From an uncultured Alphaproteobacteria bacterium (lineage in GTDB: Bacteria; Pseudomonadota; Alphaproteobacteria; Rhizobiales; Methyloligellaceae), in contig CAWDMD010000007.1 in NCBI GenBank assembly GCA_963803385.1, forward strand, positions 346,770 through 370,769: DNA of 24,000 nucleotides, written 5' to 3'. The translations under genes were made by a program, and so were the position numbers. The notes under the pieces were generated by a model. That model did not search any database and was not told the DNA's origin. It saw only the letters and a program-made list of their open reading frames with translations. Positions 825 through 24,000 of the stretch are shown here, piece after piece (within the stretch, counting starts at the first letter, position 1; every line of letters starts with the position of its first letter).

Positions 825-846
825 GTCTCCCGGGGCAGAGGCCCAC

Positions 847-1269: not shown

Positions 1270-1368
1270 ACCGCAACGTCTTCCCTCACCATGATCGGTT
1301 TCTAGCAACTGATAGCGTCAGCCTGCGGGTTGACCGCTACGGTCGCGCCCACGCACACTGACAGCACC

Positions 1369-5630: not shown

Positions 5631-5819
5631 GCGCGGTCCTTTTCAACGCGAAGGCGGCGCCCGACGAGGCGCGCTTGGCAACATGCTGCTGTTCGGTTTT
5701 GAGTTGGCGTCGTCTGGACCGGGGTCAGGTCCCAAGGAGGGCATCTTACCGTACCCGGCCGGTGAAAGGGGTGGTTTTACGTTCGCGACCAAGGTACTAG
5801 TTGACCTCGGTCAGGGGGC

Positions 5820-6221: not shown

Positions 6222-6327
6222 TTCCGACCTCCCCTGCCTTGCCGACACGTCCTGCTCGTCGGCAGTCGTTTATCCCCGCGTCTGAACCCGCTTTGCGGTG
6301 CGCAGGCCGCGGGTCTTGGAGGGACAC

Positions 6328-7287: not shown

Positions 7288-7299
7288 GGGTCACCAGCC

Positions 7300-7648: not shown

Positions 7649-7679
7649 CGCGAGCGCTAAAGCCCCACGGCTCGATCCC

Positions 7680-8713: not shown

Positions 8714-8728
8714 TAGGTAGATACGCCG
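8694..8728 (+). promoter_or_regulatory. predicted sigma70-type promoter overlapped by a 20-bp operator-like box (copy 1), upstream of the MBL hydrolase gene
   Basis: TTGACA sits at 8694-8699. The box GCTACCAAGTAGTAGGTAGA (8702-8721) contains the dyad CTACC-N8-GGTAG. A TAGATA -10 candidate sits at 8718-8723. Exactly 29 nt separate the -35 hexamer from ATG 8729 and there is no Shine-Dalgarno, a geometry that fits a leaderless transcript. Confidence 0.5.
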
Positions 8729-9727
8729 ATGATGCCGGGAAAGCTCGACATTTGCTCGCATTGCGGCGGACCGCCGCTGTCGCGCCGGGGCCTCCTCAAG
8801 ATCTCGGTCGCGCTCGCATCGGTGCCGTTTCTGAGGCCGATCCCGGGCTTCGCCGCGGCGCCCGCAGCCGACGCCCTCGAGGTCACCGAAATCGCCCCCG
8901 GCGTCTTCGTGCATCAGGGCCGCTACGAGATGCAATCGCCCGAGAACCGCGGTGACATGGCCAATGCCGGCTTCATTGTCGGCAACGACGCGGTCGCCGT
9001 GATCGACACGCTCGGTAGCGAAGAAGTCGGCGAGCAATTGCGGAACGCGGTGCGCGCGGTCACCGACAAACCGATCCGCTACGTCATCAACACCCACATG
9101 CATCCGGACCATGTGTTCGGCAATGCCGCGTTCAAAGAGGACAATCCCGAATTCGTCGCCAACCGCAAGCTCGAGCGCGGACTGCGCGCCCGCGCCGAGC
9201 GCTATCTGATGATCAACAAGAAGATGCTCGGGCCGGAGGCGTTCAAAGGCATCGAGATCGTGCTTCCCACCGTCGCCGTCGACGACAAGATGACGCTCGA
9301 TCTCGGCGGCCGTACCCTCCTGCTCGAGACGCAGCCGACGGCTCATACCGACAACGACCTCATCATCACCGACAGCGCCACCAACACGATGTTTCTCGGG
9401 GACCTGTTGTTCTCGGGCCATGTGCCGACGCTCGACGGGTCTATCGAGGGCTGGCTCGCGGTGATCGACAATCTGAAAGAACGGAAGGTCGCGCGCGTCG
9501 TGCCCGGGCACGGGCCTCACGCCATGGAGCTGCCGCAGGCCTTCGATCCGGAGGAGAACTATCTCGCCACGATCGCGACCGACGTCCGCAACATGATCAA
9601 GGACGGCAAGACCATCGAGGACGCGACCAAGACGGCGGGCTTCGAGGCGCGCGATTCCTGGAAGCTGTTCGATGAGTATCACGTGAGAAACGTCACCGCG
9701 GCCTTCGCCGAACTCGAATGGGAATAA
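8729..9727 (+). CDS. MBL-fold metallo-hydrolase, periplasmic; resembles the quinoprotein-relay-system zinc metallohydrolase family
   Basis: 332 aa with a twin-arginine-like signal (SRRGLLKISVALASVPFL...AAA). It has the HxHxDH motif NTHMHPDHVFGN and downstream His/Asp ligand candidates (AHTDND, PGHGP). A SoxYZ-like carrier gene follows, the usual partner in that family by recollection of TIGRFAM/PGAP naming. Confidence 0.8.
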   Translation: MMPGKLDICSHCGGPPLSRRGLLKISVALASVPFLRPIPGFAAAPAADALEVTEIAPGVFVHQGRYEMQSPENRGDMANAGFIVGNDAVAVIDTLGSEEVGEQLRNAVRAVTDKPIRYVINTHMHPDHVFGNAAFKEDNPEFVANRKLERGLRARAERYLMINKKMLGPEAFKGIEIVLPTVAVDDKMTLDLGGRTLLLETQPTAHTDNDLIITDSATNTMFLGDLLFSGHVPTLDGSIEGWLAVIDNLKERKVARVVPGHGPHAMELPQAFDPEENYLATIATDVRNMIKDGKTIEDATKTAGFEARDSWKLFDEYHVRNVTAAFAELEWE

Positions 9728-9745
9728 ATTTGGGAGGAAGACGCC

Positions 9746-10571
9746 ATGTCCGGCAGTGTTGATCGCCTTGTCTCTCTGTCCGCCGCGGCGGCGCTTGCCG
9801 CAACGCTTCTTGTCTGCGGCGCATCCTTGGCCAAGGCCGATGAGGATGTGTGGCCGACGCTGAAACAGGCGAATTTCGGCGACCGCGACATCAAGGCCGA
9901 GGACGGCTTCGTCACCCTCGATGCCCCGGTCACCGCCGAGGACGCCGCGGTGGTGCCGCTCACGGTGCGGGTGCCGCCGTCCGTCAAGGCCAAGCTCAAG
10001 TCGCTGACCCTGATCATCGACAAGAACCCGAACCCGGTGGTGGCCAAGGTGCATTTCGGCCCCGCCGCCGGCACGGGCGGCGAGCGCTCGTTCGCGACCC
10101 GGGTCCGCGTCGACAATTTCTCTCATGTCCGCGCCATCCTCGAGACCGAGGACGGCACCTTGCACATGGCGACCAAATTCGTGCAGGCCGCGGGCGGCTG
10201 TGCCGCGATGCAGGCCAAGGACCCGGACGCCGACACGGTCGGTCTCGGCAAGACCATCGTGAAGAGCGTTCCCGCCGGCGTTGTCGTCGACGCCGCTGTT
10301 CGAAGGGCTGGTGATGATCAAGCACCCGAACGCGAACGGCATGCAGCTCGACATCAATACCGGCGACTATATCCCGGCGCGGTTCGTCAAGGAGGTGGTG
10401 GTGAAGCGTGACGGCGAGCTCGTGTTCGACATGGACACCACGTTCTCGATCTCGACCAACCCGAATTTCCGCTTCAGCTTCGGCCGCGGCACCGACAACG
10501 AACTCGAGGTCGCCATCACCGATACCGACGGCACCTTGTTCACCGGCAAGTCCGACCCGAGCGGGTCGTAG
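9746..10571 (+). pseudogene. SoxY-SoxZ fusion-type carrier (quinoprotein dehydrogenase-associated SoxYZ-like), split by one frameshift at about 10263-10290
   Basis: The frame 2 part has a Sec signal (ASLAKA|DEDVW) and a SoxY-like domain ending in AAGGCAA (Cys codon 10199-10201). The frame 3 part is SoxZ-like: STPLFEGLVMIKHPNANGMQLDINTGDYIPARFVKEVVVKRDGELVF...SISTNPNFRF. Frame 3 opens only after TGA 10260-10262. The total is 826 nt, which is 275 codons plus 1 nt. Two separate genes (soxZ-like with a TTG start at 10281) cannot be excluded. Confidence 0.65.
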
Positions 10572-10764
10572 CGCGAGCTGCCACGGCTGCCCGACGTGAG
10601 AGCGACCCGCGCCCGGCCGAGAGGTTTGCGCAGATGGATAGCCAATATACCAAAGATGTTCTAGGCCAAAAGGCCAATACTGCAGCGGAGCGTACCTACA
10701 TTATAACTGAAGTCATGCTCGGAAACTCAATTAAGACGAACCGAACTCCCAGGAGGAATTACCC

Positions 10765-11292
10765 ATGCGATCCGCTCTTTATTTGCTGATATTTGCCCTT
10801 ATGCTCTTCGCTGTGCCTGAAGCGAGGGCGGATGATGCCGCCATGAGCAGCGAGGATCTTATGGCAAGCTTGAAGGGCGCTGCCCCGGATAGTCTCATCA
10901 AAGACGCCACGCTCATGAACATGGCCGACATGACGGTCCTCCGGAAGGGCACCAATGGCTGGACCTGCATGGTCCATGGCGGGGTGCCGATGTGCGTCGA
11001 CGATGTGGGGCTTGACTGGGTGCATGCCCTGATGAGCAAGTCGGCGCCGCCGGAGAAGATCGGCCTGATCTACATGCTCAAGGGAGACGCCGGCGTCAGC
11101 AATACCGATCCCTTCGCCAAGGCGGAGACCCCCGACAACAATTGGGTCAAGACCGGCCCGCACATCATGATCGTCGGCGGCGTCAAGGGTCTCGCCCAGG
11201 GCCTTCCCAACGGGGCGAAGCCGGACGAAACCGCGCCTTATGTGATGTGGCCGGGGACGCCCTACGAGCATTTGATGCTCCCGACCGATTAG
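10765..11292 (+). CDS. secreted hypothetical protein (175 aa), no family recognised
   Basis: AGGAGG Shine-Dalgarno (10751-10756) lies 8 nt before ATG 10765. The Sec signal is MRSALYLLIFALMLFAVPEARA|DD. The mature part has a Cys pair (GWTCMVHGGVPMCVDD) and several Met/His residues. A ~190-nt unusually AT-rich spacer precedes it. Confidence 0.7.
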   Translation: MRSALYLLIFALMLFAVPEARADDAAMSSEDLMASLKGAAPDSLIKDATLMNMADMTVLRKGTNGWTCMVHGGVPMCVDDVGLDWVHALMSKSAPPEKIGLIYMLKGDAGVSNTDPFAKAETPDNNWVKTGPHIMIVGGVKGLAQGLPNGAKPDETAPYVMWPGTPYEHLMLPTD

Positions 11293-11362
11293 GCTCGGGT
11301 TTCGCATCGCGCGGGCGCGGGGCCGCAGCCGGCGGCTCTGAGCCTGCCCGAAACCTTCGCCG

Positions 11363-11397
11363 TTGACACGCTACCAAGTAGTAGGTAGACGAGCGAA
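11363..11397 (+). promoter_or_regulatory. predicted sigma70-type promoter overlapped by the same 20-bp operator-like box (copy 2), upstream of the TetR gene
   Basis: TTGACA sits at 11363-11368. The box GCTACCAAGTAGTAGGTAGA (11370-11389) is identical to copy 1. A TAGACG -10 candidate sits at 11386-11391. Again exactly 29 nt separate the -35 hexamer from ATG 11398, with no clear Shine-Dalgarno. Confidence 0.5.
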
Positions 11398-11976
11398 ATG
11401 ACGCTGACCAAGGACTTGCTGCTGGCCGAGGCCGAGGCGCTGTTGCGCACACGCGGCTACGCCGCCTTCAGCTATGCCGACCTCTCAACGCGCGTCGGCA
11501 TTCGCAAGGCGAGCATCCACCATCACTTCGCCACCAAGGAGGAACTCGGCGGCGTCCTGATCGACAATTACCTCGTCAGGTTCGAAGACGCCCTGAAGGA
11601 GATCCTCGCGCAGGAGTCGAAAGCCAAAATCAGGCTGGAGCGCTACGCCCACTTCTTCGTTACCAGCATGATCGACGGCATGTTGCCCTTGTGCGGCGCT
11701 CTCTCGGCAGAGATGGCGGTATTGCCGCAATCGATCCAAGAGCGGGTCCACCGCTTCTTCAGGCTGCATCTGGACTGGGTGGAAGGGGTGATCCGTGCCG
11801 GCGTCACCGCCAAGGAGTTGCGCGCCGACGTCGACCCCGGCACCACCGCGATGCTCATTCTGAGTACGCTCGAAGGCGCGAGCTTCGTCGCCTGGGCCAT
11901 CGACGACGCGCGCCAGATCGCGCCGGCCGTCGGGCAATTGATTGCCTGCCTCGAGCGCCGGAAGGCCGGCTGCTAA
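11398..11976 (+). CDS. TetR/AcrR-family transcriptional regulator
   Basis: 192 aa. The N-terminal HTH is LLRTRGYAAFSYADLSTRVGIRKASIHHHFATKEEL, typical of the TetR_N domain. An all-helical C-terminal ligand domain follows. Confidence 0.9.
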   Translation: MTLTKDLLLAEAEALLRTRGYAAFSYADLSTRVGIRKASIHHHFATKEELGGVLIDNYLVRFEDALKEILAQESKAKIRLERYAHFFVTSMIDGMLPLCGALSAEMAVLPQSIQERVHRFFRLHLDWVEGVIRAGVTAKELRADVDPGTTAMLILSTLEGASFVAWAIDDARQIAPAVGQLIACLERRKAGC

Positions 11977-12006
11977 AGGCCCCGCGCCGCTCGCGCCCGC
12001 AACCGC

Positions 12007-12820
12007 CTAACGGTCGCTCGCGCTGTAATAGCCCTGATGCAGCCGCTTGCGGTACACCACCCCGGGATGGGAGGAGCACGCCTTCATCACATCGATGCCG
12101 CTGAACTTGGACAAATCGTACTGGCACACGATCGTCGTCTGCGGGTGCTCGATCAGGAGATCGTTCAGAGCCGCCTCATAGTCGTGCATGGTCTCGACGC
12201 CCGGCGTTTCGGTGAAGAACCAATCCATCTCACCGACAAGGAGATGCGATGGGTGATTGTCGGCGCGCTTGCGGATGATCTGCAGGCGCATGAAGGCGAC
12301 CATGAACTCGGGCGTGAACGTCGCGTTCTTCAAATAAGCGTCGCTCGCCGGAATCAAGGTCAGCAGTCCGCGATGCATGAGTTCGTGGGGGTCCAATCCC
12401 TCATCGCGGACGCGATCCATAAGCTCTTCGCGCGTGCTTGCCGAATGGATGTAGACGGTCGGCTTGCCGGCATAGAAGTGATTCAAAAAGAAGGGACGGA
12501 ACGCTTCCCAACGCTCGGCATGGCGCCCGACGAACAGGCAGATATGCCTTGAGGCGAGGTCGGAGTTCGGCTTCCTTGGCGCCGCTGCTCAAGCCGCTGA
12601 TGGTCGGTGCCCTGAGGTCCGACGTCTCGGACACGCCGCTCGCAACGAACATGTCAAGTACGTCGGCATCGAAGCGGCGCTCGTTGCGCGGCCCAACGCG
12701 ATGACATGCGAGCGTGCCCTCGTTGGTCCAACGACGGAGCGTGGTCTTGCTCACCGCGAGATAGGTCGATGCCTCGTCAAGGGTCAGAAGTGGTTTCAAT
12801 TTGCTCATAGGTATTGGCAC
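12007..12820 (-). pseudogene. DcmR-like regulator (N-terminal excisionase/MerR-type HTH plus C-terminal MEDS sensory domain), split by one frameshift at about 12550-12588
   Basis: One frame holds the HTH part: MSKLKPLLTLDEASTYLAVSKTTLRRWTNEGTLACHRVGPRNERRFD, starting at ATG 12808 or GTG 12820. A second frame holds the MEDS domain: RHICLFVGRHAERWEAFRPFFLNHFYAGKPTVYIHSASTREELMDRV...IVCQYDLSKF..., running to TAA 12007-12009. The MEDS frame has a TGA at 12589-12591 and no canonical start codon before RHICLF. The total length equals whole codons plus 1 nt. Confidence 0.7.
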
Positions 12821-13221
12821 TCTTCTCCATGTCGCCGACCGCCTGCGGCAGGTGTCACTCGTAATCGTTACTTAGCCAAAAATCGCTACCCCACATATAA
12901 GAAATGTGTCGCACCTATACAAACCTGTAGCCAAGGCCGCCCTACGCTCAAATCTTTCATAAGTCCTGGCATGATCGCATAAGTAAGTTCGCCAATATTT
13001 CGAAGCTTCACGCGGCCTTCTACCCATCCTCCGCCAAGAATACTTGGGATGCTGACATGCATCGGTTTCGCCCGCTCACTGTCCCCAATTTTCGGCTTCG
13101 CGGACCCCGGCAAAGGCCCCGCAGACGCGCCTCGCACGTCATGTGATTCGGCCAATCGGCGGCGATCAATCCGGAGGCCGTCAAGATTGCCGGGACGGCC
13201 GCTTGGGCGAGGGTGGCAGCC

Positions 13222-13830
13222 TCACACCCGCCTCCGTCGGGCGCGATCGGCGGACGCCGCCTGGCGCTTTACCAACAGCAGCGCCAGTCCACTACCGAGA
13301 ATCATCACCACAAGCACCTTCCAGCCAATTCGCAGCAGCGGCGGCCAAGCGGTGCCGACCGCAAACGGAAACCGTGCGACTTGATCGGCGCCCCCCTCCT
13401 TTGCCGTCACCAGCCCCACATATCGGCCGGCCTCCGCGAAGTCGTGCTCGAAGTGAATGGTGCCGGTCGAATAGGACGCCGGCGGCAGGCTGAATTCGAC
13501 GGGCTGCTCGTCATCGGCCTTCCACCCGTCGACGACGTGCAGAATTTTCACTTCGACCGGAAGGTTGCGCATGCCCGGGTCGACATAGTCCAAGGCGACC
13601 ACCGTCTTCCCGGTCTTCGGGATGTCCTCGCAAAACTCCTGCGTGTCGGTCTCTTGAGGCTGATATCCAGTGAAGTGGATGATGTGCGTCCCGACGCGCA
13701 AGACGCACTTGTCCTGCTCGATGCTCAGCCCGCCATGCGCCGATGCCTGCGGGGAAAACCACCCCGAGGCAATCAGCGCATAAGCGGCGAGGCCGATGAC
13801 GGCGACGAACCTAATGGCTTCCTCCCTCAC
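13222..13830 (-). CDS. pmoD: PmoD/AmoD-like periplasmic protein with C-terminal membrane anchor
   Basis: The GTG start overlaps the pmoB stop (GTGA, 13827-13830). The signal peptide is IRFVAVIGLAAYALIASGWFSPQASA|HGG. A ~150-aa beta-rich domain with two Cys follows, then a C-terminal TM helix (IGWKVLVVMILGSGLALLLV) and a basic tail. Topology and position directly after subunit B match PmoD, but no motif-level match could be verified. Confidence 0.55.
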   Translation of the reverse strand: MREEAIRFVAVIGLAAYALIASGWFSPQASAHGGLSIEQDKCVLRVGTHIIHFTGYQPQETDTQEFCEDIPKTGKTVVALDYVDPGMRNLPVEVKILHVVDGWKADDEQPVEFSLPPASYSTGTIHFEHDFAEAGRYVGLVTAKEGGADQVARFPFAVGTAWPPLLRIGWKVLVVMILGSGLALLLVKRQAASADRARRRRV

Positions 13831-15101
13831 GACGTCCCGAGAAAGTTCGGAATGATTGGGCCCGAAATCTCGGCAATGCGACGCACGCCTTCCGGCGTGT
13901 AGAAGAAGAGAAGAGCTCCGAACCGATTGTCCGGATCGTTGAGCAGGCTGGTGAGACGCTCGACCTCCCACGCAGCGTCGGTAGCCTCGATGTCGATCTC
14001 TCTGGTCTCACCTGGCTGTATCGGCCGGTCGTCCTTCACGATCAGTCCGTGGTTGACCAAATCCGCCGGGTAGCCCTCGTCGACGTTGCTCACCGCGGTT
14101 TCCGACTTCGCGTTGACGAAGCGAACGTTGGCGCTGGTGAACTCGCCGATCTCAAGCACGTCCGGGGTCTCGTTCTTGACTTGCAAGGTCATCTTCATCG
14201 AGCGGCCCGGCACGTCATAGGTCGCCCGCAACACCTTCACCGAGACCTGGCTATCCGGGAGCGGCAGCGGGGGGGTTTGCATCTTGCCCGCTTGAAGGGG
14301 AACGCTGCGTGGGTATTCGGTGTCGGCCCAACTCACCCCAGCGACGACGATGGTGACGGTGCCGACGAGAATGCCCGCCGCGACGACCATGTCCGCGCGC
14401 GTGATCAGGCGGCCGGCGTGGCCCGCCGCCACCTCGCGGAAGCGCGGGATAAGCATCGGACGGCGCATCCACCACAGCAGCCAGAACAGGCCGATAGCGG
14501 CCCAAAGTCCCTGCCAAATGACGACGGTGCGAACGCCCCAGGTGGACAGGTCAGGGATGGTGCGGCCATCGAGGGTCTTTACCGGATAAACGAAATCCGC
14601 GGCAGCGCCTGTGACATCGACCCATTTGCCCGGCCCGACGATCGGGCCGGCCTGATGAACCAGGACGGTCGGATGAATGTGCCACCGCCCGGGTAGGCGC
14701 GCCTGGAGCACGATCTTGAAACTATAGTCGCGGCCCTTCTGCAAACCTGTAGAATTTTGCGCCGCAACCTCGTTGATGTACGACTTCTTCTTCACCATCA
14801 CCGAGCCGGGACCGCCGGTCGACAGGAACGCAAGTGTCGGATCCGCAAGATTCTGCGGCCAGTCGCCGAATACCCTGAACTTTCCGGTGACGACGAGATC
14901 GTCGTTCACCTTCATCTCATCCGTCGACCATTTGACGTCGTACCATTCGAGGGTCCGCATCCGCAGGAACGGCTCCTGGTTGCGTTCGCCATGAGCGAAG
15001 GCGGAGACGGTGCCAACAACAGAGACTGCGCAGACGAGGATGAAGAGATTGGCCCAAAGCAGAAGACGCCGTGCCAGGGCCGACCGAATGACGAGGAGCA
15101 T
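13827..15101 (-). CDS. pmoB: copper membrane monooxygenase subunit B (PmoB/AmoB family)
   Basis: GGGAGGG Shine-Dalgarno lies 7 nt before ATG 15101; an upstream ATG at 15131 is also open. The signal is cleaved at AFA|HGERNQEPFLRMRT, giving an N-terminal His ligand. The HxH motif is GRWHIHP. Two central TM helices and a C-terminal cupredoxin-like domain follow. Confidence 0.92.
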   Translation of the reverse strand: MLLVIRSALARRLLLWANLFILVCAVSVVGTVSAFAHGERNQEPFLRMRTLEWYDVKWSTDEMKVNDDLVVTGKFRVFGDWPQNLADPTLAFLSTGGPGSVMVKKKSYINEVAAQNSTGLQKGRDYSFKIVLQARLPGRWHIHPTVLVHQAGPIVGPGKWVDVTGAAADFVYPVKTLDGRTIPDLSTWGVRTVVIWQGLWAAIGLFWLLWWMRRPMLIPRFREVAAGHAGRLITRADMVVAAGILVGTVTIVVAGVSWADTEYPRSVPLQAGKMQTPPLPLPDSQVSVKVLRATYDVPGRSMKMTLQVKNETPDVLEIGEFTSANVRFVNAKSETAVSNVDEGYPADLVNHGLIVKDDRPIQPGETREIDIEATDAAWEVERLTSLLNDPDNRFGALLFFYTPEGVRRIAEISGPIIPNFLGTS

Positions 15102-15167
15102 AACCGTTCCCTCCCGAGGATTGTGGTGCATGCGAGTTGCTTACGCCTTGTTCGCCTATGTGCCGGG

Positions 15168-16001
15168 TTAGTCGGTCTCGTTCGCCTTAGGCTTCACACC
15201 CAGATAGGTTGCGATCGGGCTTTCAACCCAGTTGGTCTTGGCGAAGAACAAGCCGATGTACCACCACACCAGATACATCATCATGCAGACGAAGGCTGAG
15301 AAGAAGGCGGAGATCCACGCGGAATGCCCGCCAAAGGTTCTCAGCGTTCCCCGCTCGATGAAGCGGAGGTATTCGGGGGTGGAGGAACGGGTGAAGACAT
15401 AGCCGACCATGTCCGCGGTCGACTGCACCTGGCCCATATGCTCGACGGGGATGTGATACGCCGCGATCATCGGGTAGTTGCCGGGATAGAACAGTAGCCC
15501 GAAGCCCCAAGCCCCAATGATGGCGGTCGCGAGAAAATTGCGGCTCAGCAACAGAACCGAGTCCATGAACAGCGCGCCGGGCAGAAGGAGCGTCGGGAAA
15601 ATCAGGCTGTAGGGCAGCCCCGCCCACATATGGAAGCCGAGGATGCGGTCAACCCACTGGCCGAACATGAGCGCCAGGATGCAAAGCGTGGCGCCGATCG
15701 GCAGGCGGAACTTTTCCCAAAGATAGGCTTGAGCCGCGGCCGGGAACATGATGGCCACGATGGGGGTCAGGGTGGCCCAGAACTGCCGGTCCTTCCAATC
15801 GACCCAGAAGTCCCAGTCACCGGCCAGCAGCATGAAGTGCAGGTGAAACGTGCCGGCGATCGTGAAGAACGCGATCACCGCGATCACCAAATCAAATGCC
15901 CTGGATGCCCGTGCTGCAGCAACTTTCGGAGGCACTTGCGTGTCTCTGGCTGCGGCGCCGCTTGTTCCACGGGTCTCCCGATATTCCATCGTGGTGGTCA
16001 T
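15168..16001 (-). CDS. pmoA: copper membrane monooxygenase subunit A (PmoA/AmoA family), 277 aa
   Basis: Diagnostic stretches include FHLHFMLLAGDWDFWVDWKDRQFW, GLLFYPGNYP, TPEYLRFIERGTLRTFGGHSAWISAFFSAFV and WWYIG. A GAGGGGAG Shine-Dalgarno-like run precedes ATG 16001. It is longer than the usual ~250 aa because of an N-terminal extension and a C-terminal polar tail. Confidence 0.92.
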   Translation of the reverse strand: MTTTMEYRETRGTSGAAARDTQVPPKVAAARASRAFDLVIAVIAFFTIAGTFHLHFMLLAGDWDFWVDWKDRQFWATLTPIVAIMFPAAAQAYLWEKFRLPIGATLCILALMFGQWVDRILGFHMWAGLPYSLIFPTLLLPGALFMDSVLLLSRNFLATAIIGAWGFGLLFYPGNYPMIAAYHIPVEHMGQVQSTADMVGYVFTRSSTPEYLRFIERGTLRTFGGHSAWISAFFSAFVCMMMYLVWWYIGLFFAKTNWVESPIATYLGVKPKANETD

Positions 16002-16140
16002 TTCGCTCCCCTCAATCTTGTCGTTATGCGGACCGGCTCATGGTTGAGCTCGTTCCATTTGGTGTTTGGGAAATGGGGCGCCGGCCTCGTCGATCCGGGA
16101 GGTCACAGCTCAGCCGACGCCCCTTCCTTTTGGTGGGCGC

Positions 16141-16926
16141 CTAATGCGCGACACCATCCAGAGCGTGCTCGCCCCAAATCTCGTTGATCAGCTCGTTGAG
16201 GCGAAGGCCGATCTGAAGGGCGAGGCCGAACAGCGCCAGCCCGGTCCAACCGAGCGCGACGAAGCCCCAGTGGAGAGGCGCGGTAAACCACTCCTCCATG
16301 AACCAGAAGGCATGGCCCCATTCATTCAGGCCAACGTTCGGAAGGATGAAGAACGGTCCGAACACTGCCAGCATGAAGGGAATGGAGACGCGCCTTGCGA
16401 ATTTCGGCAGACGCGTCGTGGCGTACATCAGGGCCGCCGATCCGCAAATGATGTAGATCGGGAAGCTGAGATAGAAGATGGCGATGTGGCTCGGCGTGAA
16501 GCTCGTATCGCGGAGCACGGTCTGATGCCACGAGCCGTCCTGCTCGGCGAAATAGCTCGCGCCCCAATAGACGGCGAACACATAGACGAGCAGCAATCCG
16601 AGAAGCTTGAAGTACCGGACGATCTCAACTTGAGGGGGCAGGTCTTCCAGGTCCCTGTCACGGGTGAACCACAGGTAGGAAAGCCAGCCGACGCCGATCA
16701 GCGGCAGCAGCACAAGCTGAGTCCAAAGCAATCTCATCCAGTAAATTTGAAATTCCGGCAGCGTGGAATTGAGGCCGTATTTCCATCCCGCGATGCCTTG
16801 ATAGACGCGAACTGCGGAGTACAGCACGAGCAGGAAGCCGCAGCCGATCGCGCCGATCTGTGCCCACGTTTTATTCATCGACGCCTGCGCGATACGCGCC
16901 GGGCGTTCATTCGCATAAGCAGTCAT
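16141..16926 (-). CDS. pmoC: copper membrane monooxygenase subunit C (PmoC/AmoC family), 261 aa
   Basis: AGGAGG Shine-Dalgarno lies 8 nt before ATG 16926; the ORF track's upstream extension to 17013 has no such signal. Metal-site motifs are EQDGSWHQ...FTPSH and NEWGHAFWFMEEWFTAPLHWG. Confidence 0.92.
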   Translation of the reverse strand: MTAYANERPARIAQASMNKTWAQIGAIGCGFLLVLYSAVRVYQGIAGWKYGLNSTLPEFQIYWMRLLWTQLVLLPLIGVGWLSYLWFTRDRDLEDLPPQVEIVRYFKLLGLLLVYVFAVYWGASYFAEQDGSWHQTVLRDTSFTPSHIAIFYLSFPIYIICGSAALMYATTRLPKFARRVSIPFMLAVFGPFFILPNVGLNEWGHAFWFMEEWFTAPLHWGFVALGWTGLALFGLALQIGLRLNELINEIWGEHALDGVAH

Positions 16927-17072
16927 ATGGTTTTCCTCCTTAGAATTGCCGACCGGAGACCCTGCCGGCCAACCGAACGTTCCCAAGGGGTGACCCCCTG
17001 GTCTCCTCCTCAAATCAATGGCCAGTCCGCCCTATTCGTCCCATTCTTCCCAGCGCGCACGAACCAAAGATA

Positions 17073-17101
17073 ATTGTACGAATTTACTCGTTATTGGTCA
17101 A
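17073..17101 (-). promoter_or_regulatory. predicted sigma70 promoter of the CuMMO operon
   Basis: On the minus strand: TTGACC (17101-17096), a 17-nt spacer, then TACAAT (17078-17073). It sits in a locally AT-rich stretch. The predicted 5' UTR to the pmoC ATG is about 140 nt. Confidence 0.55.
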
Positions 17102-17304
17102 TTCAACCCTTACCACTCATCAACATAGATGTAAATACATATCCATTCATGCGGCAGGTGACTTGAGCATGAGCCGCCTCACAGCCATGCCCCGAGTCAG
17201 CAACATCCTGGGATTCCAGCAGAAACGAACTTGGTCGAAGCGCGCCAGGCTCGGCACTACGCCTCGGCCTTCGGTCAGGCCGTCTCCGCGCCGTTATTTC
17301 GACA

Positions 17305-18663
17305 TCAGGCTGCGGCGCTCGCCTCATCGTCGCTCTCTTTCCGCGCCAGTTCGCCAATGACCTGCGCCGGGGCGAATACCGGCGAATAAGGGGGGGCATA
17401 GGCGAGATCGAGATCCGCGAGGTCTTCTGCGGCGAGCTTGCCCCAAATCGCGGTGGCGACCGTATCGATATATTTGTCGACCTGATCCGCGCCCACGGCC
17501 TCGGCGCCGAGCAGTCGTCCGCTCGGCCCGTCGACAACAAGCATGACCTCGATCGATCGCGATTGTGGCATGTACCGCGCCCGGCTCGGCACCTTGGCGT
17601 GAACCGCGATAGGGTCGAAGCCGCAGTCACGCGCCTGATCCCGCGTCAAGCCGGTGCGCGCCACGGCAAGATTGAAGACCTTGAAGATGGCGGTGCCGAG
17701 AATGCCTGGGAACGTCGCCCGGCCCCCGGCGAGGTTGATGCCGGCGACCCGCCCCTGACGGTTGGCAATGTCGCCAAGCGGGCACCAGATCATTTTCTGC
17801 GAGACGATGTGACGGGCCTCGGCACAATCGCCGGCGGCGTAGGCGCCCGGCACGCTGGTGCGCATCTCGGCGTTGACGGCAATGGCGCCAGTCACGCCGA
17901 CCTTGATGCCGGCGGCCGTGGCAAGCTCCACGCGCGGGCGCACGCCGACCGCCATCAACACCAAATCGGCATCGACCCGGCGGCCGTCGCCGAGCTCGAC
18001 GCCGCCCTTGACGATCTGCGCCGCCGAGACCCCGCAAACGATCTGGACGGCGTGCTTCGCCAGCTCATGCCGCGCCGCCTCGCCGATCCGCGGATCGAAA
18101 CCCGGCAGTAGCCGCGGCATCCCCTCGACCAGGGTGACGGCCATGCCCCTGAGCCAAGCGGCTTCAGCCATCTCGAGGCCGATATAGCCACCGCCGACGA
18201 TGACTACCCGGCCACTGTGGCGAAGCATGCCCGCGAGCCGATCGGCATCGCCGATCGACCGCAGCGGCACGACCGGCGGCGCGCCCCCCGCCACCGGAAT
18301 CTGAGGCAGAATCGCCTGCGCTCCGGTGGCAAACAGGATTTCGTCGAAGGACTCCTTGGTGGCCCTGCCCTTCTCGAGGGATTTCACCCGGACACGGCGC
18401 GCGCCGAGATCGACCTCCTCAACTCTTTGCCTGACGCGGAGATCGATGCCGTCGGCACGAAAGCGCTCGACGCTGCGGGCGATGAGGGCGCCGCGCGAGA
18501 GGCCTCCGGGATCGCCGAGCCAGTAGGGAAGACCGCAGGCCGAATAGGACACCTCGGGCTCGTCCTGGAGGACGACGATGTCGAGGTCCGGCCGCCGGCG
18601 CTTGGCGGTCGCGGCCGCCTTCATCCCCGCGGCGACACCTCCTACGATCAAGACCCGGCTCAT
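17305..18663 (-). CDS. FAD-dependent pyridine nucleotide-disulfide oxidoreductase, CoA-disulfide reductase / NADH oxidase family
   Basis: 452 aa. The FAD motif is VLIVGGVAAGMKAA. The single redox-Cys motif is SYSACGLPYW, as in CoADR/Nox. The NAD(P) motif is VVIVGGGYIGLEMAEA. Confidence 0.85.
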   Translation of the reverse strand: MSRVLIVGGVAAGMKAAATAKRRRPDLDIVVLQDEPEVSYSACGLPYWLGDPGGLSRGALIARSVERFRADGIDLRVRQRVEEVDLGARRVRVKSLEKGRATKESFDEILFATGAQAILPQIPVAGGAPPVVPLRSIGDADRLAGMLRHSGRVVIVGGGYIGLEMAEAAWLRGMAVTLVEGMPRLLPGFDPRIGEAARHELAKHAVQIVCGVSAAQIVKGGVELGDGRRVDADLVLMAVGVRPRVELATAAGIKVGVTGAIAVNAEMRTSVPGAYAAGDCAEARHIVSQKMIWCPLGDIANRQGRVAGINLAGGRATFPGILGTAIFKVFNLAVARTGLTRDQARDCGFDPIAVHAKVPSRARYMPQSRSIEVMLVVDGPSGRLLGAEAVGADQVDKYIDTVATAIWGKLAAEDLADLDLAYAPPYSPVFAPAQVIGELARKESDDEASAAA

Positions 18664-18672
18664 GTGGCTCGC

Positions 18673-20112
18673 TCAGGCGTTGCCGTATTTCACCCAATGC
18701 GCCGCGAAGATCGCCTCGGGCGTGATGGCCCTCGGCTGCAGCGGCCGCGACACCCAAGTCAGATTGACGAAATTGCGGGCGCTGACGTTCTCCGTGGTGA
18801 TGTTGCCGCCCCAACTGCCGCAAGCGAGCGACAGCGTGTAAGGCATGCCGTTGCGCGGACTCCCCGCCCCTTCGTTGAGGTTCTGGTTGACCATGACCCT
18901 CGCGGTCTTGGTGCCCATGGCCAGCGTCTCGACATTGGCGTCGCTCGTGGTGTGGATACCGCAGGTATGGCCGAGGCCCTGATAGCCGGTGATGCGGTTG
19001 ACCAGATCGACGGCGGCGTCGATGCCGCCGGAATAGCGATAGAGCGCCAGCACCACCGAGAGCTTCTCGCCGGAGAAGGGATGGTCATGGCCGACGCCGT
19101 CCTCTTCCACGATCAGGAAGGTGCGATCGTCGGGAAGGTCGAAGCCGGCCAGCTCGGCGATGCGGGCAGCGGGCTTGGCGACGACATCGATGGTCGGGAT
19201 ATGACCACCGTCGGGCCACATCGCCCGCGCGAGCTGCTGCTTCTGTTCCGGGGTGCATAGATAGCCGCCGGCGTCGATCAGCTTTCGTAAGAGCGCCGCG
19301 TAGATATCCGCCGCCGCGACCACGGAATTGTCGGCGAGGCAGCTCGTGGCGTAGTCGAAGGTCTTGGCCCTGGCGATCATCAGCGCGGCGTCGTCGAGGT
19401 CGGCGGTTTCGTCGACGACGTGGACGGAATTGCCGACGCCGACGCCATAGGCCGGCGTTCCCGAGCTGTACGCCGCCTTGACCATGCCTGCGCCCCCCGT
19501 CGCCACCACCAGGTCGGCGAGGCGCATCAAGGCCTCGGTCTTGGCGAGCGACGGCTGGGTGATGACCTGGATCAGGTCCTCCGGGGCGCCGACCTCACGG
19601 CAGCCTTCGCGCATGGCCTCGACCACGGCGATCGACGTCAGCTTGGTCCGGGGATGCGGAGAGACGATGATGGCGTTGCGGGCTTTGAGGGCGGCGAGGG
19701 CCTTCACCGGCGGTGTCGCATCGGGTCCGGTGGTCGGGATCAGCGCCGCGACCACGCCGACCGGCTTCGCGATCTTGACCAGCCCCTTCTCGGGAATTTC
19801 CTCCACGACCCCGCAGGTCTTGATGCCGGCCATATCGGCGAGCGTGCCCATGACGCGGTTTTCGAACTTCGCCACCTTGTCCTGATAGCGGCCGAAGCCG
19901 CCCTCATCGACGGCGAGGCGCGCCAAGGCCTCGCGGTTTTTGAACACATGCCAGCCGACGGCCGTCACCAAGGCATCAGCCTCCGCCTGGCTATAGCCTT
20001 CGATCGCCCGCTGCGCGGCGCGCGCCCGCGCGACCATGGCCCCGATCTCGGCCTCGGCTTGCTCCGGCGTTTGTTTCGGCTTCTTGGCGATGTCGGCAAC
20101 AATTGTCGTCAT
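18673..20112 (-). CDS. CoA-acylating aldehyde dehydrogenase (AdhE-N/EutE/SucD/SauS-like)
   Basis: Start ATG 20112 gives MTTIVADIAKKPK; the longer ORF to 20274 overlaps the upstream gene. Family-typical stretches include LAVDEGGFGRYQDKVAKFENR, ATGGAGMVKAAYSSGTPAYGVGVGN and a Cys loop FDYATSCLADNS. Length is 479 aa. Confidence 0.8.
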   Translation of the reverse strand: MTTIVADIAKKPKQTPEQAEAEIGAMVARARAAQRAIEGYSQAEADALVTAVGWHVFKNREALARLAVDEGGFGRYQDKVAKFENRVMGTLADMAGIKTCGVVEEIPEKGLVKIAKPVGVVAALIPTTGPDATPPVKALAALKARNAIIVSPHPRTKLTSIAVVEAMREGCREVGAPEDLIQVITQPSLAKTEALMRLADLVVATGGAGMVKAAYSSGTPAYGVGVGNSVHVVDETADLDDAALMIARAKTFDYATSCLADNSVVAAADIYAALLRKLIDAGGYLCTPEQKQQLARAMWPDGGHIPTIDVVAKPAARIAELAGFDLPDDRTFLIVEEDGVGHDHPFSGEKLSVVLALYRYSGGIDAAVDLVNRITGYQGLGHTCGIHTTSDANVETLAMGTKTARVMVNQNLNEGAGSPRNGMPYTLSLACGSWGGNITTENVSARNFVNLTWVSRPLQPRAITPEAIFAAHWVKYGNA

Positions 20113-20132
20113 GACGGATAATCCCTTCAGGT

Positions 20133-22232
20133 TCAGTGCTTGGCATTGGAGGGGGCTACGGCCGACGGCGCGCTCGAGGCCCGCATGCGGGCATCGACCA
20201 CGACGAAGCCGTCGGGAGTGGCGATGACTGGGTTGAGGTCGAGTTCTTCCAGCCAGGGAACACCGGCAACCCACTTCGAGAATGCGGCGATCAGGTTGGC
20301 GAAGGCCGAGAGGTCGATGCCGGCCTGGCCGCGGGCGCCGGTCAAGAGGGCACGGCCCTTCAATTCATCGAGCATGCGAAGCGCCTCGGTTTCATCCACG
20401 GGAGCGAGGCGCAAGGCGACGTCACCAAGGGCCTCGACCCAGATGCCGCCCAGACCGGCCATGACCACGGGTCCGAAATTGGCGTCATGGCGGGCTCCGA
20501 GCACGAGTTCGATCCCAGGCGCCACTTGCCGCTGCAACAGTGCCGTCGCCGAGCCGAGACGGGTAGAGACGTCGTCATAGGCCGCGGCGACGGCCGCATG
20601 GGTGGCGAGCCCGAGGCGCACACCACCACGCTCCGATTTGTGGGTAAGTCCCGGTTGCTCTGCCTTGAGCACCACAGGCATTCCGAGATCGTCGGCGGCG
20701 GCGACCGCCTCTCGGCGTGAATGAACCAGCCGCCACGATGTGACCGGCAGGCCGGCTTCGGCCAGAAGCTCGAATGCGAGCGTCGACGGCAGCCAGCCAT
20801 TGGCCATCGCGCGCGGCGCCGGGGCGACCGGAGGGCTGAGCGCAATGTCGCTTGCGGCGCGGTTGCTCGCTGTCAATGCCAACAGCTCCGCCGTGCGCGC
20901 GGGCCAGGGATGACAGGGGATGCCGGCGGCAAGCAACCGCTTCCGGTTCGCCGCCGCCTCCTCGGGCGCGACCCAACAGACATGGACCGGCTTGCTCGCG
21001 CCATCGGCCCTTGCCGCGCTCACTTCGGCGATGACCCGGTCGGTGACCTCGCTCATCAGGGCCGACCGCTGGAGCAGGACCAGGACGACAGCATCGATCT
21101 CGTCGCTGGCGAGGAGGCTTACGAGCGTCGCGCCATACATCTCGGCAAAGCGCGGCCAGTCGGTGGTGACGTCGATTGGGTTGGCGGCAGACCCATGGCG
21201 CGGAAGCGTTGCCGCGATGTCCGATTGCTGCGCCTCGGAAAGTCTTGGGACTTCGAGCCCGTGGGAGTCCAGCAGGTCGGCGAGCTCGACGCCGGTGCCT
21301 CCGGAATTGGTGACGATGGCAACGCGGCGGCCTCTTAGCGGCGGCTGGCGGTCGAGAGTGGCCGCAAGATCGAGCAACGTCAGCCCGTCATCGACGACAT
21401 GGACTCCGGCCTGGCGAAGCGCCGCCAGAGTGACGGCGGTGTCGGTGGCCAAGGCCGCGGTGTGACTTGCGGCGGCACGGCGCCCGGCGACACTGCGCCC
21501 CGTCTTCAGGACCACGATCGGCTTTTCGCCCGCGATCTCGCGCGCGGCGTCAAAGAAGCCGCGGCCGTCGCCGATCAATTCGAGCAGCATGGCGATCACC
21601 CTGGTCTCGGGGTCGCCGGCGAAGGCGCGCAAGAGATCGGTCTCGTCGAGATCGGCCTTGTTGCCGCAGGCGACGACCCTGGAGAAGCCAATCAGCTCCT
21701 CCTGCGAGCGCGAGAAGGCCGCCATGCCGTAGGCGCCGCTCTGGGTGAAGAGGGCGATGCCGCCACGGGCCGGGAGCCCCAAGCCGAGCGAGGCGTTGAG
21801 ACCGGCGCTGGTGCTGACCACACCGAAGCAATTCGGACCGATCAACCGGACGCCGCCGGCCCGCGCCGCAGCGAGCGCGCGCCGTTGTAACGCCAAACCG
21901 GCTTGGCTGGTCTCGGCGAAGCCGCCGCTGATGATCACCGCGACCGGCACGTGCGCAGTGGCACAATCCTCGATGATCCCCGGAACCTCGCCCGGGGGCG
22001 CCGCCACGATGGCGAGGTCGACACCCCCGGGCACGCCGGAGAGGCTCGCATAGGCAGGTCGGCCGAGCACCTCTCCTCGCTTCGGATGAACCGCAACCAC
22101 CTCGCCTTGAAACGCCGCATCGGTCGCGATCAGATTTTGCATGACGAGATGCCCAAGCTTGCCGGGCGTCGCCGACGCGCCAACGAGCGCCACACGTCGT
22201 GGCGCGAACAAGGCTTGCGGCCAGGCGGTCAT
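20133..22232 (-). CDS. ADP-forming (NDP-forming) acyl-CoA synthetase, fused alpha/beta domains
   Basis: 699 aa. The CoA-binding N-terminus is PRRVALVGASATPGKLGHLVMQNL. It also has GPNCFGV, FTQSGAYG and the phosphohistidine loop AASHTAALA. The C-terminal half is ATP-grasp-like. The start overlaps the upstream stop (ATGA 22229-22232). Confidence 0.85.
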   Translation of the reverse strand: MTAWPQALFAPRRVALVGASATPGKLGHLVMQNLIATDAAFQGEVVAVHPKRGEVLGRPAYASLSGVPGGVDLAIVAAPPGEVPGIIEDCATAHVPVAVIISGGFAETSQAGLALQRRALAAARAGGVRLIGPNCFGVVSTSAGLNASLGLGLPARGGIALFTQSGAYGMAAFSRSQEELIGFSRVVACGNKADLDETDLLRAFAGDPETRVIAMLLELIGDGRGFFDAAREIAGEKPIVVLKTGRSVAGRRAAASHTAALATDTAVTLAALRQAGVHVVDDGLTLLDLAATLDRQPPLRGRRVAIVTNSGGTGVELADLLDSHGLEVPRLSEAQQSDIAATLPRHGSAANPIDVTTDWPRFAEMYGATLVSLLASDEIDAVVLVLLQRSALMSEVTDRVIAEVSAARADGASKPVHVCWVAPEEAAANRKRLLAAGIPCHPWPARTAELLALTASNRAASDIALSPPVAPAPRAMANGWLPSTLAFELLAEAGLPVTSWRLVHSRREAVAAADDLGMPVVLKAEQPGLTHKSERGGVRLGLATHAAVAAAYDDVSTRLGSATALLQRQVAPGIELVLGARHDANFGPVVMAGLGGIWVEALGDVALRLAPVDETEALRMLDELKGRALLTGARGQAGIDLSAFANLIAAFSKWVAGVPWLEELDLNPVIATPDGFVVVDARMRASSAPSAVAPSNAKH

Positions 22233-23239
22233 GTGTCGCCCCCGCGTTGCACGAAGACGCTCGGCAAGCCGCCGCTATGGATGAAGACCACGGTATCGCA
22301 GTCCGTGAAGCGGCCGGCGGCGAGGAGCGCGTGGTAGCCGGCGAGCGCCTTCGCGGTATAGGTCGGATCGAGCACGAGCCCTTCGCAGCGCGCGGCGAGC
22401 GCGAGCGCCGCGTCGCCTGCCGGCGACGGAATGCCGTAGCCGGCGCCGATGAAGCCGTCATGGACGATCAGTTCGTCGTCATCGATTTGAAACTGGGAGC
22501 CCAAGCGTTCGGCGGCCGCGGCGGCGAGGAGATGGATCCGCGCGCGCACCTCGACGGCCGGACGGCTGACGGCGATCCCCTCCACACGCCAGGAAGCGCC
22601 ATAGAGCCGGGAGCCCAACAGCCAGCCGGCCAAGGTTGTGCCCGATCCTGCCGCCATCACCACGCAATCCGGCGCGACGCCGTTCTGCCGGCATTGCGCC
22701 ACCGTCTCTGCGACGGCGCGAACGTGCCCAATCACGCCCAGGGGGCAGGCGCCACCCCGCGGGATCAGATAAGGATGGCCGCCGGCGGCGCGGATGCGCG
22801 CGCCCTCCTGCTCTAGTGCGAGGTCGACCGAGCTGCGCTCGGCATCGTTGGTGAAGCGGATCTCGGCGCCAAGCAGCGCGGTGAGATAATGATTGCCCTC
22901 GAGCCGGCGCGGCGGGCTGCCCCAATAGACCGCGACCATGCCGAGCCCGGTATGGGCCGCCGCGGCCGCCGTCGCCCGAACGTGGTTGGAGAGCGGCCCC
23001 GCGCCGGTGACCAGCGTGTCGGCGCCCTCCTCGATGGCGTCGGCGAGGATCAATTCGAGACCCCGCACCTTGTTGCCGCCGAGGCCGAAGGGGATCAGGT
23101 CGTCGCGCTTGATCCACAGCTCAGGGCCGCCAAGCGCTTCCCTCAGAGCGGGCGCCGGCAACAGCGGCGTCGGCGCCGGATTAAGCGGAAACCGCGCCGG
23201 CTCCTCGGTTCGCGGCTGCCAATCGAGCTGTCCGCGCAT
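22229..23239 (-). CDS. PLP-dependent enzyme of the ACC deaminase / D-cysteine desulfhydrase family
   Basis: GAGGAG Shine-Dalgarno precedes ATG 23239, which lies 2 nt after the upstream stop. The PLP-lysine motif is GLGGNKVRGLELIL. It also has GAGPLSNHV and AAGSGTT loops. Length is 336 aa. Confidence 0.85.
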   Translation of the reverse strand: MRGQLDWQPRTEEPARFPLNPAPTPLLPAPALREALGGPELWIKRDDLIPFGLGGNKVRGLELILADAIEEGADTLVTGAGPLSNHVRATAAAAAHTGLGMVAVYWGSPPRRLEGNHYLTALLGAEIRFTNDAERSSVDLALEQEGARIRAAGGHPYLIPRGGACPLGVIGHVRAVAETVAQCRQNGVAPDCVVMAAGSGTTLAGWLLGSRLYGASWRVEGIAVSRPAVEVRARIHLLAAAAAERLGSQFQIDDDELIVHDGFIGAGYGIPSPAGDAALALAARCEGLVLDPTYTAKALAGYHALLAAGRFTDCDTVVFIHSGGLPSVFVQRGGDT

Positions 23240-23241
23240 GG

Positions 23242-24000
23242 TCACTCCTCGCTTGCCAACACACGGTCGACAAGCAATTGGCACTGGCCGGTTTGCCGCG
23301 ACGGATCGAGCAGATCGCCGATCTCCTGCGGCGACAGGCGCGCGGCGATATCGGCATTCACCCTGATCGCCTGGCCGAACGGCTCCCCGCGCGCGGCCGC
23401 TTCTTGAGCGGCGCGATGCACGATCTGATGCGCGGACTGCTTACCGAGCTTCCGTGCGAGCGCGAGCATGACCGCCTCCGAACAGACGCGGCCTTCGCTC
23501 GCTTCGACATTGCGGCGCATCCGCTCCACGTCGACGTCGAGATTCTCCAGCAAGGTGGCGAGCAGATTGAGCGCCTTGCCCGCGGCCATGGTGAGCTCCG
23601 GCACGGCGTGCCACTCGACCTTCCAGGAGCGGCCGTCGCGCTCGTGATCGTGAGGCAGGCTCTCGGCGAGTGCCGCGGCATTGGCACGGACCACGCGAGA
23701 GAGCGTGCCGAGATGCTCGGAGATCTCCGGGTTGCGCTTGTGCGGCATGGTGATGCTGCCGACCTGCGCGTTGCTCGAAGCCTTCGCCAAGCTCGCCGAT
23801 CTCGTCGCGCTGGAGCGAGTAGACCTCGTGACCAATGCGGTCGGCGGTGCCCGTGGCCAGCACCAGGAGCTGCGCCCATTCGACGATCACGTCGCGGCTC
23901 GCGGTCCAGGACATGGCGGGTGGCGCGCAGCCCGATCCTGGCGCAGAACGCCTCTTGCAGCTCAAGACCGCGGGACCCGAGCGAAGACAGGCTGCCCACC
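23242..24000 (-). pseudogene. fumarate-lyase superfamily enzyme (adenylosuccinate lyase / 3-carboxymuconate cycloisomerase-like), 5' end outside the window, two frameshifts inside the window
   Basis: The C-terminal frame carries the signature VGSITMPHKRNPE and runs to TGA 23242-23244. Upstream the family-like peptide continues in a second frame as PPAMSWTASRDVIVEWAQLLVLATGTADRIGHEVYSLQRDEIGELGEGFEQ. Further upstream it continues in a third frame as GSLSSLGSRGLELQEAFCARIGLRA. The junctions lie near 23769-23773 and 23920-23927. Confidence 0.7.

Follow-up and report, generated by a model that had tools for sequence, protein, structure and literature searches.

We report here on a 24,000-nt stretch of genomic DNA (G000:C7:346770-370769, from a genome of 3.44 Mb in 20 contigs; hereafter the window), and in particular on a block of five genes at 17305-24000, which lies directly upstream of an operon for a copper membrane monooxygenase (CuMMO). 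These five genes are the 3′ end, that is the last third, of an array of 16 genes on the same strand, mostly overlapping or closely spaced. Judged by gene content, the array is a cluster for bacterial coenzyme M (CoM) biosynthesis combined with the CoM-dependent pathway for short-chain epoxides, and at the level of the cluster we regard this assignment as secure. The host is an uncultured soil relative of Methyloceanibacter. The five genes, by window position, are the following.

23242..24000, minus strand: 3′ part of xcbD (3-sulfopropionylcysteine synthase, aspartase/fumarase superfamily; NCBIfam NF052536), in four frame pieces
22229..23239, minus strand: xcbE, pyridoxal phosphate (PLP)-dependent CoM biosynthesis enzyme (NF052537, 500.3 bits; Pfam PALP)
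20133..22232, minus strand: fused alpha/beta NDP(ADP)-forming acyl-CoA synthetase (ACS), 699 aa (Pfam domains)
18673..20112, minus strand: CoA-acylating aldehyde dehydrogenase (ALDH), 479 aa, of the SauS-like clade of CoM clusters (NF047625 match)
17305..18663, minus strand: single-cysteine FAD flavoprotein of the CoA disulfide reductase (CoADR)/NADH oxidase (Nox) family, 452 aa (Pyr_redox_2, Pyr_redox_dim and TIGR03385 matches)

A sequence-only reading of the window had described five successive, tightly packed frames on the minus strand, and our inspection of the open reading frames (ORFs) over 17305-24000 confirmed this layout. Precisely, xcbD ends with a TGA at 23244-23242, followed by “cc” and by the xcbE ATG at 23239, in front of which there is a GAGGAG; xcbE and the ACS gene share an ATGA overlap at 22229-22232; the gaps between ACS and ALDH and between ALDH and the flavoprotein are 20 nt (20113-20132) and 9 nt (18664-18672), respectively. 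The fold and family calls of the same reading agree with the Pfam and NCBIfam matches for all five proteins, and the PLP enzyme has the 1-aminocyclopropane-1-carboxylate deaminase/D-cysteine desulfhydrase fold. Two of its statements have to be revised. The first gene is not a single open frame, as xcbD is split into four frame pieces in the assembly and extends past the window edge to about C7:371366, and the five genes are not a stand-alone unit, since the edge cuts a co-directional array that reaches about 11 kb further upstream.

We read on from the window edge over 19 kb (upstream locus L009). The genes of the array come in the order epoxyalkane:CoM transferase (EaCoMT), 2-ketopropyl-CoM reductase/carboxylase (2-KPCC), two short-chain dehydrogenases/reductases (SDRs), CoA-transferase A/B, xcbA, comA, xcbC, xcbD, xcbE, ACS, ALDH and the CoADR-like flavoprotein. 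EaCoMT is 76% identical to XecA (2-hydroxypropyl-CoM lyase) of Xanthobacter autotrophicus Py2, and 2-KPCC scores 819 bits to PDB 1MO9, so that EaCoMT, two SDR dehydrogenases and 2-KPCC, the set of the CoM-dependent epoxyalkane pathway, are encoded together. As for CoM biosynthesis, XcbA (DUF7714 family) scores 484.5 bits, ComA 313.8 bits, XcbC 734.3 bits (cut-off 575) and XcbE 500.3 bits over profile positions 3-322 of 322 (NF052537 cut-off 450). Therefore the full xcbABCDE set is present, contiguous and on one strand, with xcbD in pieces. The set of five genes, which had earlier been left unmatched to any named pathway, can now be assigned to one because XcbE is above its cut-off, XcbD orthologues are above theirs, and XcbC, ComA, XcbA, 2-KPCC and EaCoMT are encoded upstream. 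By these matches the “lyase” of the sequence-only reading is XcbD and its PLP enzyme is XcbE, both of bacterial CoM biosynthesis.

Clusters in which bacterial CoM biosynthesis is combined with CoM-dependent epoxyalkane metabolism are documented (PMC9457059, PMC11507031, PMC8727900). In the work of Wu et al. 2022 on the Xanthobacter enzymes, XcbD joins cysteine and sulfoacrylate to 3-sulfopropionylcysteine, XcbE converts this compound to sulfoethanethioaldehyde, and XcbA reduces sulfoethanethioaldehyde to CoM (PMC9457059). By orthology to these enzymes, XcbD and XcbE of the window would catalyze the corresponding steps and the XcbA encoded upstream would perform the last reduction. Likewise, by orthology with enzymes shown elsewhere, EaCoMT, the SDRs and 2-KPCC would convert epoxypropane to acetoacetate. 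Around the array, a gene for a MerR-family regulator lies directly upstream of EaCoMT (L009 11560-12033, minus strand) and an acetoacetate decarboxylase gene about 7 kb beyond EaCoMT (L009 17861-18529, plus strand); both fit a propylene, acetoacetate and acetone context.

The broken frame of xcbD is the point on which the cluster could be read in the opposite way. As assembled, the gene does not reach the cut-off of 600 bits for a single XcbD protein: its four pieces, in three frames, score 259, 33, 71 and 251 bits against NF052536, and all of them match the XcbD model. Alignment with two related metagenome-assembled genomes (MAGs), an uncultured Methyloceanibacter (L014) and an uncultured alphaproteobacterium (L015), placed +1 insertions at window positions 23779, 23924 and 24036 (the last one just outside the window), and beyond the first insertion the reading frame meets an in-frame stop. 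If the frameshifts were real, CoM synthesis from the cluster would be blocked, which would weigh against the assignment given above. The three frameshifts with this stop, and further unpaired single-base indels relative to L015 elsewhere in the window, would fit a decaying cluster, in which xcbD is a true pseudogene, CoM synthesis is lost and the position next to the CuMMO operon is a relic.

We consider such decay unlikely. In fact, L014 and L015 are each 94% identical to the window at the DNA level across xcbD, the three inserted bases are absent from both, and their XcbD orthologues are intact, at 665 bits (cut-off 600). We also inspected Logan contigs of four soil-metagenome runs, all belonging to a single study (depth 2-6x, several contigs being 1-7% divergent), which report the state of close relatives and not that of the exact source strain: every contig covering any of the three sites, in three of the four runs, is without the extra base, and one contig of 1018 nt is without all three. 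Furthermore, the insertions sum to exactly +3 and each of the out-of-frame pieces still matches the XcbD profile well, as they would with base-calling or consensus errors, and the array has its other 15 genes intact. Since the insertions are absent both from the related MAGs and from independent short-read contigs, we hold with good confidence that the breaks are probable assembly errors.

Many unpaired single-base indels relative to L015 were also seen at 5600-13200 (for instance at 7481, 7659, 7781, 8475, 8653 and 10266), where they fall in copC/copD and SoxY-like genes; the pattern is the same as in xcbD and fits consensus errors either in the present assembly or in L015. A candidate for a spare XcbD, at C3:122069-123340, was rejected because it scores 262 bits only.

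The array is followed, on the same strand, by the CuMMO operon and its putative control elements.

17060..17155, minus strand: promoter/operator-like block, with -35 box TTGACC at 17101-17096, -10 box TACAAT at 17078-17073 and palindrome ATGTATTTACAT at 17129-17140
13827..16926, minus strand: CuMMO operon (Pfam AmoC, AMO and Monooxygenase_B)
16141-16926, minus strand: pmoC-like gene
15168-16001, minus strand: pmoA-like gene
13827-15131, minus strand: pmoB-like gene
12007..12820, minus strand: regulator with HTH_17 (39.2 bits) and MEDS (109.7 bits) domains, downstream of the CuMMO operon, as two overlapping ORFs in two frames

The pmoC gene most likely starts at the ATG at 16926, which stands behind an AGGAGG and gives a protein of 261 aa as in relatives; with this start, the spacer between the flavoprotein stop and pmoC is about 378 nt long. 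The PmoA of the window is 45-52% identical to PmoA-like matches in named methanotroph genomes and 56% identical (over 90% of the query) to that of Haliea sp. ETY-M, its highest-scoring named cultured relative. An HTH_17/MEDS-type regulator likewise ends the clusters in the loci L096, L099 and L100 and in Methylohalobius crimeensis.

We looked at how often a CuMMO operon and a CoM block are found together. Among the 80 CuMMO loci found with the PmoA of the window, the CoM block lies upstream of CuMMO in two (L014 and L015, with 95-98% PmoA identity), and the other 78 have no CoM cluster genes within 10 kb or less on each side, where the contig allowed. A further locus, L099 (ENA ERZ25039602 contig_13616), has 79-82% DNA identity to the window and the same junction of CoM tail and CuMMO; nearly all of its genes are fragmented, and it looks like an error-rich long-read assembly. 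As far as these loci go, the adjacency is specific to one lineage, represented by the window and three other loci. In the locus L100, whose PmoA is 67% identical, the last ~46 residues of an EaCoMT-like gene (2-139) stand directly before pmoC, with the CuMMO operon at 250-3360 and a MEDS regulator downstream; here the CuMMO clade and the CoM pathway are linked a second time, in another arrangement.

In the other direction, we picked by ALDH similarity (87, 75 and 73%) three unrelated metagenomic contigs (L095, L096 and L097). All three have the exact order SDR, CoA-transferase A, CoA-transferase B, XcbA/DUF7714, ComA, XcbC, XcbD, XcbE, ACS, ALDH and pyridine nucleotide-disulfide oxidoreductase, and in none of them does a CuMMO adjoin the block. 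Also the plasmid clusters of Py2, Nocardioides sp. JS614 and Mycolicibacterium chubuense NBB4 accompany soluble di-iron monooxygenases (PMC11507031, PMC8727900). The sequence-only reading had stated that its link to CuMMO would be coincidental if orthologous clusters were common without CuMMO and already had an assigned pathway. The orthologous block is indeed common without an adjoining CuMMO and its pathway is already assigned, in part hypothetically, so the link is not obligate, yet it is functionally sensible. It is so because the monooxygenase immediately downstream would supply the epoxide to the CoM pathway, because PmoA is only 45-52% identical to the matches in named methanotrophs, and because co-transcription of EaCoMT and CuMMO genes is reported for Haliea (PMC6440738), and L100 has the EaCoMT fragment before pmoC.

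A second pmoA-like gene, 58% identical to that of the window, is found on the same contig about 24 kb away (G000:C7:337429-338112), and such a pair also occurs in a related MAG (L015 and L026).

The spacer before pmoC suggests how the two units may be expressed. The promoter scan returned the sigma-70-like site TTGACC-17-TACAAT at 17101-17073, as had been proposed from the sequence. The earlier failure to find a terminator in front of it was borne out too: the consensus scan of 16800-17500 gave no site resembling one, and the RNA fold of 17060-17320 (z = -1.7) has no obvious hairpin with a T-tract, though a terminator that is atypical or depends on Rho may escape both. An AT-rich block of ~96 nt, which holds both the promoter-like hexamers and the palindrome ATGTA-TT-TACAT, is nearly invariant in the window, L014 and L015, genomes that differ by 6-10% elsewhere, and the flanking spacer varies, with a 10-nt indel. 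Because this block is invariant while the rest of the spacer varies, the CuMMO operon very likely has its own regulated promoter; it may also receive read-through transcription from the CoM array. Even with 2 mismatches allowed, the palindrome ATGTATTTACAT has no copy in the upstream 19 kb, EaCoMT promoter included. Only the octamer GGATATGT is common to both regions: the window has it a single time (17137-17144, minus strand), 43 nt before the pmoC -35 box, and the 19-kb upstream locus likewise a single time (L009 11258-11265, minus strand), 33 nt before a TTGACA in front of EaCoMT. It may be a regulator site shared by the two ends of the island, although it was chosen after viewing both sequences and the statistics are weak.

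Synteny in four settings far apart in phylogeny shows the last three genes of the array to be conserved parts of CoM/epoxyalkane clusters. The ACS has the domains CoA_binding_2, Succ_CoA_lig, Ligase_CoA_2 and ATP-grasp_5 in one chain, as expected for the NDP(ADP)-forming class; its best solved relatives are ADP-forming 3-hydroxypropionate and 4-hydroxybutyrate CoA ligases and the NDP-forming ACS 4xyl, and it is 73.5% identical to Xaut_5066 of the Py2 CoM cluster. The flavoprotein has the domains Pyr_redox_2, Pyr_redox and Pyr_redox_dim and is 53.5% identical to Xaut_5065. Its scores of 355.7 bits for TIGR03385 (cut-off 578.8) and 333 bits for NF007123 (cut-off 458) do not make it a CoADR equivalog, and its best solved relative is the NADH oxidase 6ruz, followed by CoADRs. 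Its SYSACGLPY aligns with VSYGACGLPY of 6ruz, which puts it in the single-cysteine group of CoADR, Nox and NADH peroxidase, and the cysteine of this motif is presumably the redox-active residue.

The ALDH belongs to the CoA-acylating class (AdhE N-terminal/EutE/SucD type) by full-length similarity and by its core cysteine (“dyatsC” compared with “dngiiC”), which in our reading is the catalytic residue. Its best curated family is SauS (NF047625), with 497.2 bits over positions 2-463 of 464, below the cut-off of 600; its best solved relatives are the acylating succinic semialdehyde dehydrogenase 8cei (308 bits) and acetylating ALDHs. The protein is 68-71% identical to the ALDHs of the JS614 and NBB4 etn/CoM clusters, its identity falls to about 45% outside CoM clusters (plasmid collection), and more than 120 clusters at 69% identity or higher make up its large group of orthologues. 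It is also the best conserved cluster protein across phyla, with 68-75% identity compared with 34-74%, mostly near 50%, for its neighbours (against L010, L011, L096 and L097), which suggests either an unusually strong constraint or a separate horizontal transfer.

The individual reactions of these three enzymes are hypotheses, each of which we rate at best somewhat below an even chance. As a tentative reading, which we consider possible rather than probable, ACS, the SauS-like ALDH and the flavoprotein would form a two-carbon branch of the CoM pathway, from 2-oxoethyl-CoM to acetyl-CoA and CoM, would also supply an NAD(P)H:CoM-disulfide reductase, and would share transcription with a CuMMO whose substrate is not methane. 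In the ethylene branch the SDR product would be an aldehyde, 2-oxoethyl-CoM, and not a ketone. The ALDH would oxidize this compound, or malonate semialdehyde as its product, to a CoA thioester, and a 2-KPCC-type reductase would cleave the CoA thioester of carboxymethyl-CoM reductively to acetyl-CoA and free CoM. An alternative ethylene route via malonate semialdehyde is given by Mattes et al., in the summary of PMC8727900. For the ADP-forming synthetase we propose the conversion, in either direction, between an acid of the pathway and the corresponding CoA thioester, with acetoacetate, malonate, carboxymethyl-CoM and sulfoacetate as candidates. We place the ALDH in the ethylene branch because it is absent at the equivalent Py2 position, because the etn clusters of JS614 and NBB4 have it, as does the M. 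crimeensis cluster that responds to ethylene, and because its nearest curated family, SauS, acts on a sulfonated C2 aldehyde. The flavoprotein would keep CoM reduced in air with NAD(P)H, acting on CoM disulfide or mixed disulfides; this is its simplest role because it accompanies CoM genes in Py2 and in etn-type clusters, and a nicotinamide-dependent CoM disulfide reductase is known in a methanogen (PMC7278568). The genome also has a crotonyl-CoA carboxylase/reductase and pyrroloquinoline quinone (PQQ) alcohol dehydrogenases, therefore acetyl-CoA from ethylene could be assimilated.

Several points weigh against this proposal. The ALDH and the flavoprotein are below the SauS and CoADR cut-offs, respectively, and the substrates named for them are an inference from sequence. 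Our literature search on characterized 2-oxoethyl-CoM, carboxymethyl-CoM and bacterial CoM-disulfide reductase enzymes returned none with a reaction proven for these genes. PMC11507031 regards few of the pathway steps as confirmed; there the ALDH is put in CoM biosynthesis and not in catabolism, and the CoADR-like protein of M. crimeensis does not rise on ethylene.

The placement of the ALDH in biosynthesis leads to a different reading, in which ALDH and ACS would be a SauS/SauT-like pair for sulfoacetate, sulfoacetyl-CoA and sulfoacetaldehyde in CoM biosynthesis or salvage, and the flavoprotein would give the electrons for the final CoM reduction; the sulfoacetaldehyde could form when the XcbE product, an unstable thioaldehyde, is hydrolyzed. 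The match of 497 bits to SauS, an acylating sulfoacetaldehyde dehydrogenase, is consistent with this, many orthologues of the ALDH are named sulfoacetaldehyde dehydrogenase by JGI, and PMC11507031 treats the ALDH as a functional analogue of XcbA. Moreover, the three genes come straight after xcbE with coupled junctions, and the physiological reductant of XcbA is unknown. On the other hand, XcbA to XcbE alone sufficed for CoM in vitro (PMC9457059), and a substitute for XcbA is not needed here, because XcbA/DUF7714 is present in the genome of the window, in Py2 and in L095, L096 and L097. With the ALDH score below the SauS cut-off, and the ALDH missing at the equivalent place of Py2, which nevertheless makes CoM, we judge a role in biosynthesis or salvage to be improbable. 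Xsc was not seen in the cluster, no Xsc model having been searched.

An ordinary aldehyde route had been suggested by the sequence-only reading, in the form of acetaldehyde to acetyl-CoA, and no specific support was found for it. Extended to the whole block, it would run from ethane through ethanol and acetaldehyde to acetyl-CoA and then to acetate with ATP, with the flavoprotein as a general CoA-disulfide reductase. The ALDH is also related to EutE-type enzymes (335 bits) and to the N-terminal part of AdhE (385 bits), the synthetase to ADP-forming acetyl-CoA synthetases, and the relatives of the adjoining CuMMO include the A2-type CuMMO subunit of Methylococcaceae bacterium ET-HIRO. Yet the orthologous group of the ALDH lies inside CoM clusters in every context examined, with 68-71% identity there compared with about 45% outside, most such clusters are without an adjoining CuMMO, and the flavoprotein fails the CoADR equivalog cut-off; we thus consider the ordinary route very unlikely. 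The other suggestion of that reading, a sulfonated C2 compound, tied to the monooxygenase product, comes close to the truth, given the CoM pathway.

These assignments give a soil relative of Methyloceanibacter the complete gene set of a CoM-based epoxide pathway, with a divergent copper monooxygenase as its immediate neighbour. They favour the idea that alkene oxygenases exist among the CuMMOs of organisms that are neither methanotrophs nor nitrifiers, which bears on soil ethylene turnover. If the two-carbon branch proposed above were true, the last three genes and CuMMO would be a self-contained, copper-enzyme-based island for ethylene and propylene assimilation in a methylotroph background. 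Three widely conserved enzymes of the ethylene/vinyl chloride pathway are highlighted as targets for biochemistry, among which the ALDH stands out by its conservation across phyla.

Among known systems, the array resembles that of Xanthobacter autotrophicus Py2, of the same class (Alphaproteobacteria, Hyphomicrobiales), with nearly identical gene order and protein identities of 53-82%. On pXAUT01, Xaut_5075-5065 encode 2-KPCC, SDR, SDR, CoA-transferase A, CoA-transferase B, XcbA, ComA, XcbC, XcbD, ACS and a CoADR-like protein, but the line has no XcbE and no ALDH, the 2-KPCC is truncated, and Py2 has a soluble di-iron enzyme and not a CuMMO as its alkene monooxygenase. Nocardioides sp. JS614 (pNOCA01) and Mycolicibacterium chubuense NBB4 have all five families, EtnE, CoA-transferases, SDRs and MEDS regulators, and the ALDH, 68-71% identical, is by far the best conserved of the set. 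Their gene order, in contrast, is a different one and broken up into divergent units, identity reaches only 34-56% for the other proteins, and their monooxygenase is the soluble di-iron EtnABCD. The SauS/SauT sulfoacetate pathway of Cupriavidus necator H16 resembles the ALDH and ACS pair in combining an acylating ALDH for a sulfonated C2 aldehyde with an acid-CoA ligase. It differs in that the ALDH of the window is below the SauS cut-off (497 versus 600 bits) and its ligase is ADP-forming; SauT is AMP-forming.

CoADR, acyl-CoA synthetase and aldehyde dehydrogenase are standard members of vinyl chloride clusters (PMC8727900). Toppings et al. 2024 described a 13-gene etnE/CoM cluster in Methylohalobius crimeensis 10Ki, with similar ones in about 10% of methanotroph genomes, and its proteins, ACS and ALDH included, rise on ethylene, with the CoADR-like protein and the MEDS regulator as exceptions (PMC11507031). 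That cluster has XcbD, XcbE, the NDP-forming acyl-CoA synthetase, a “sulfoacetaldehyde dehydrogenase” and the CoADR-like reductase in the same order as the window, besides EtnE, SDR, CoA-transferase A/B, ComA, XcbC and a MEDS regulator, and its ALDH is 75% identical. It is reported without XcbA and has an E3-like reductase on the other strand, whereas the line here includes XcbA, a bona fide 2-KPCC and two SDRs; its pMMO operons lie outside the described cluster, whereas here a divergent CuMMO operon follows directly. For the link itself, the pmo-like “emo” genes and EaCoMT of Haliea sp. ETY-M (PMC4036023, PMC6440738) are a precedent of a CuMMO joined to the CoM epoxide pathway, although Haliea is a gammaproteobacterium and here it is the CoADR-like gene that abuts the CuMMO operon, with EaCoMT about 17 kb upstream. 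The system of the window adds one more case to a cluster type already published; its host is new, and its placement against CuMMO is rare.

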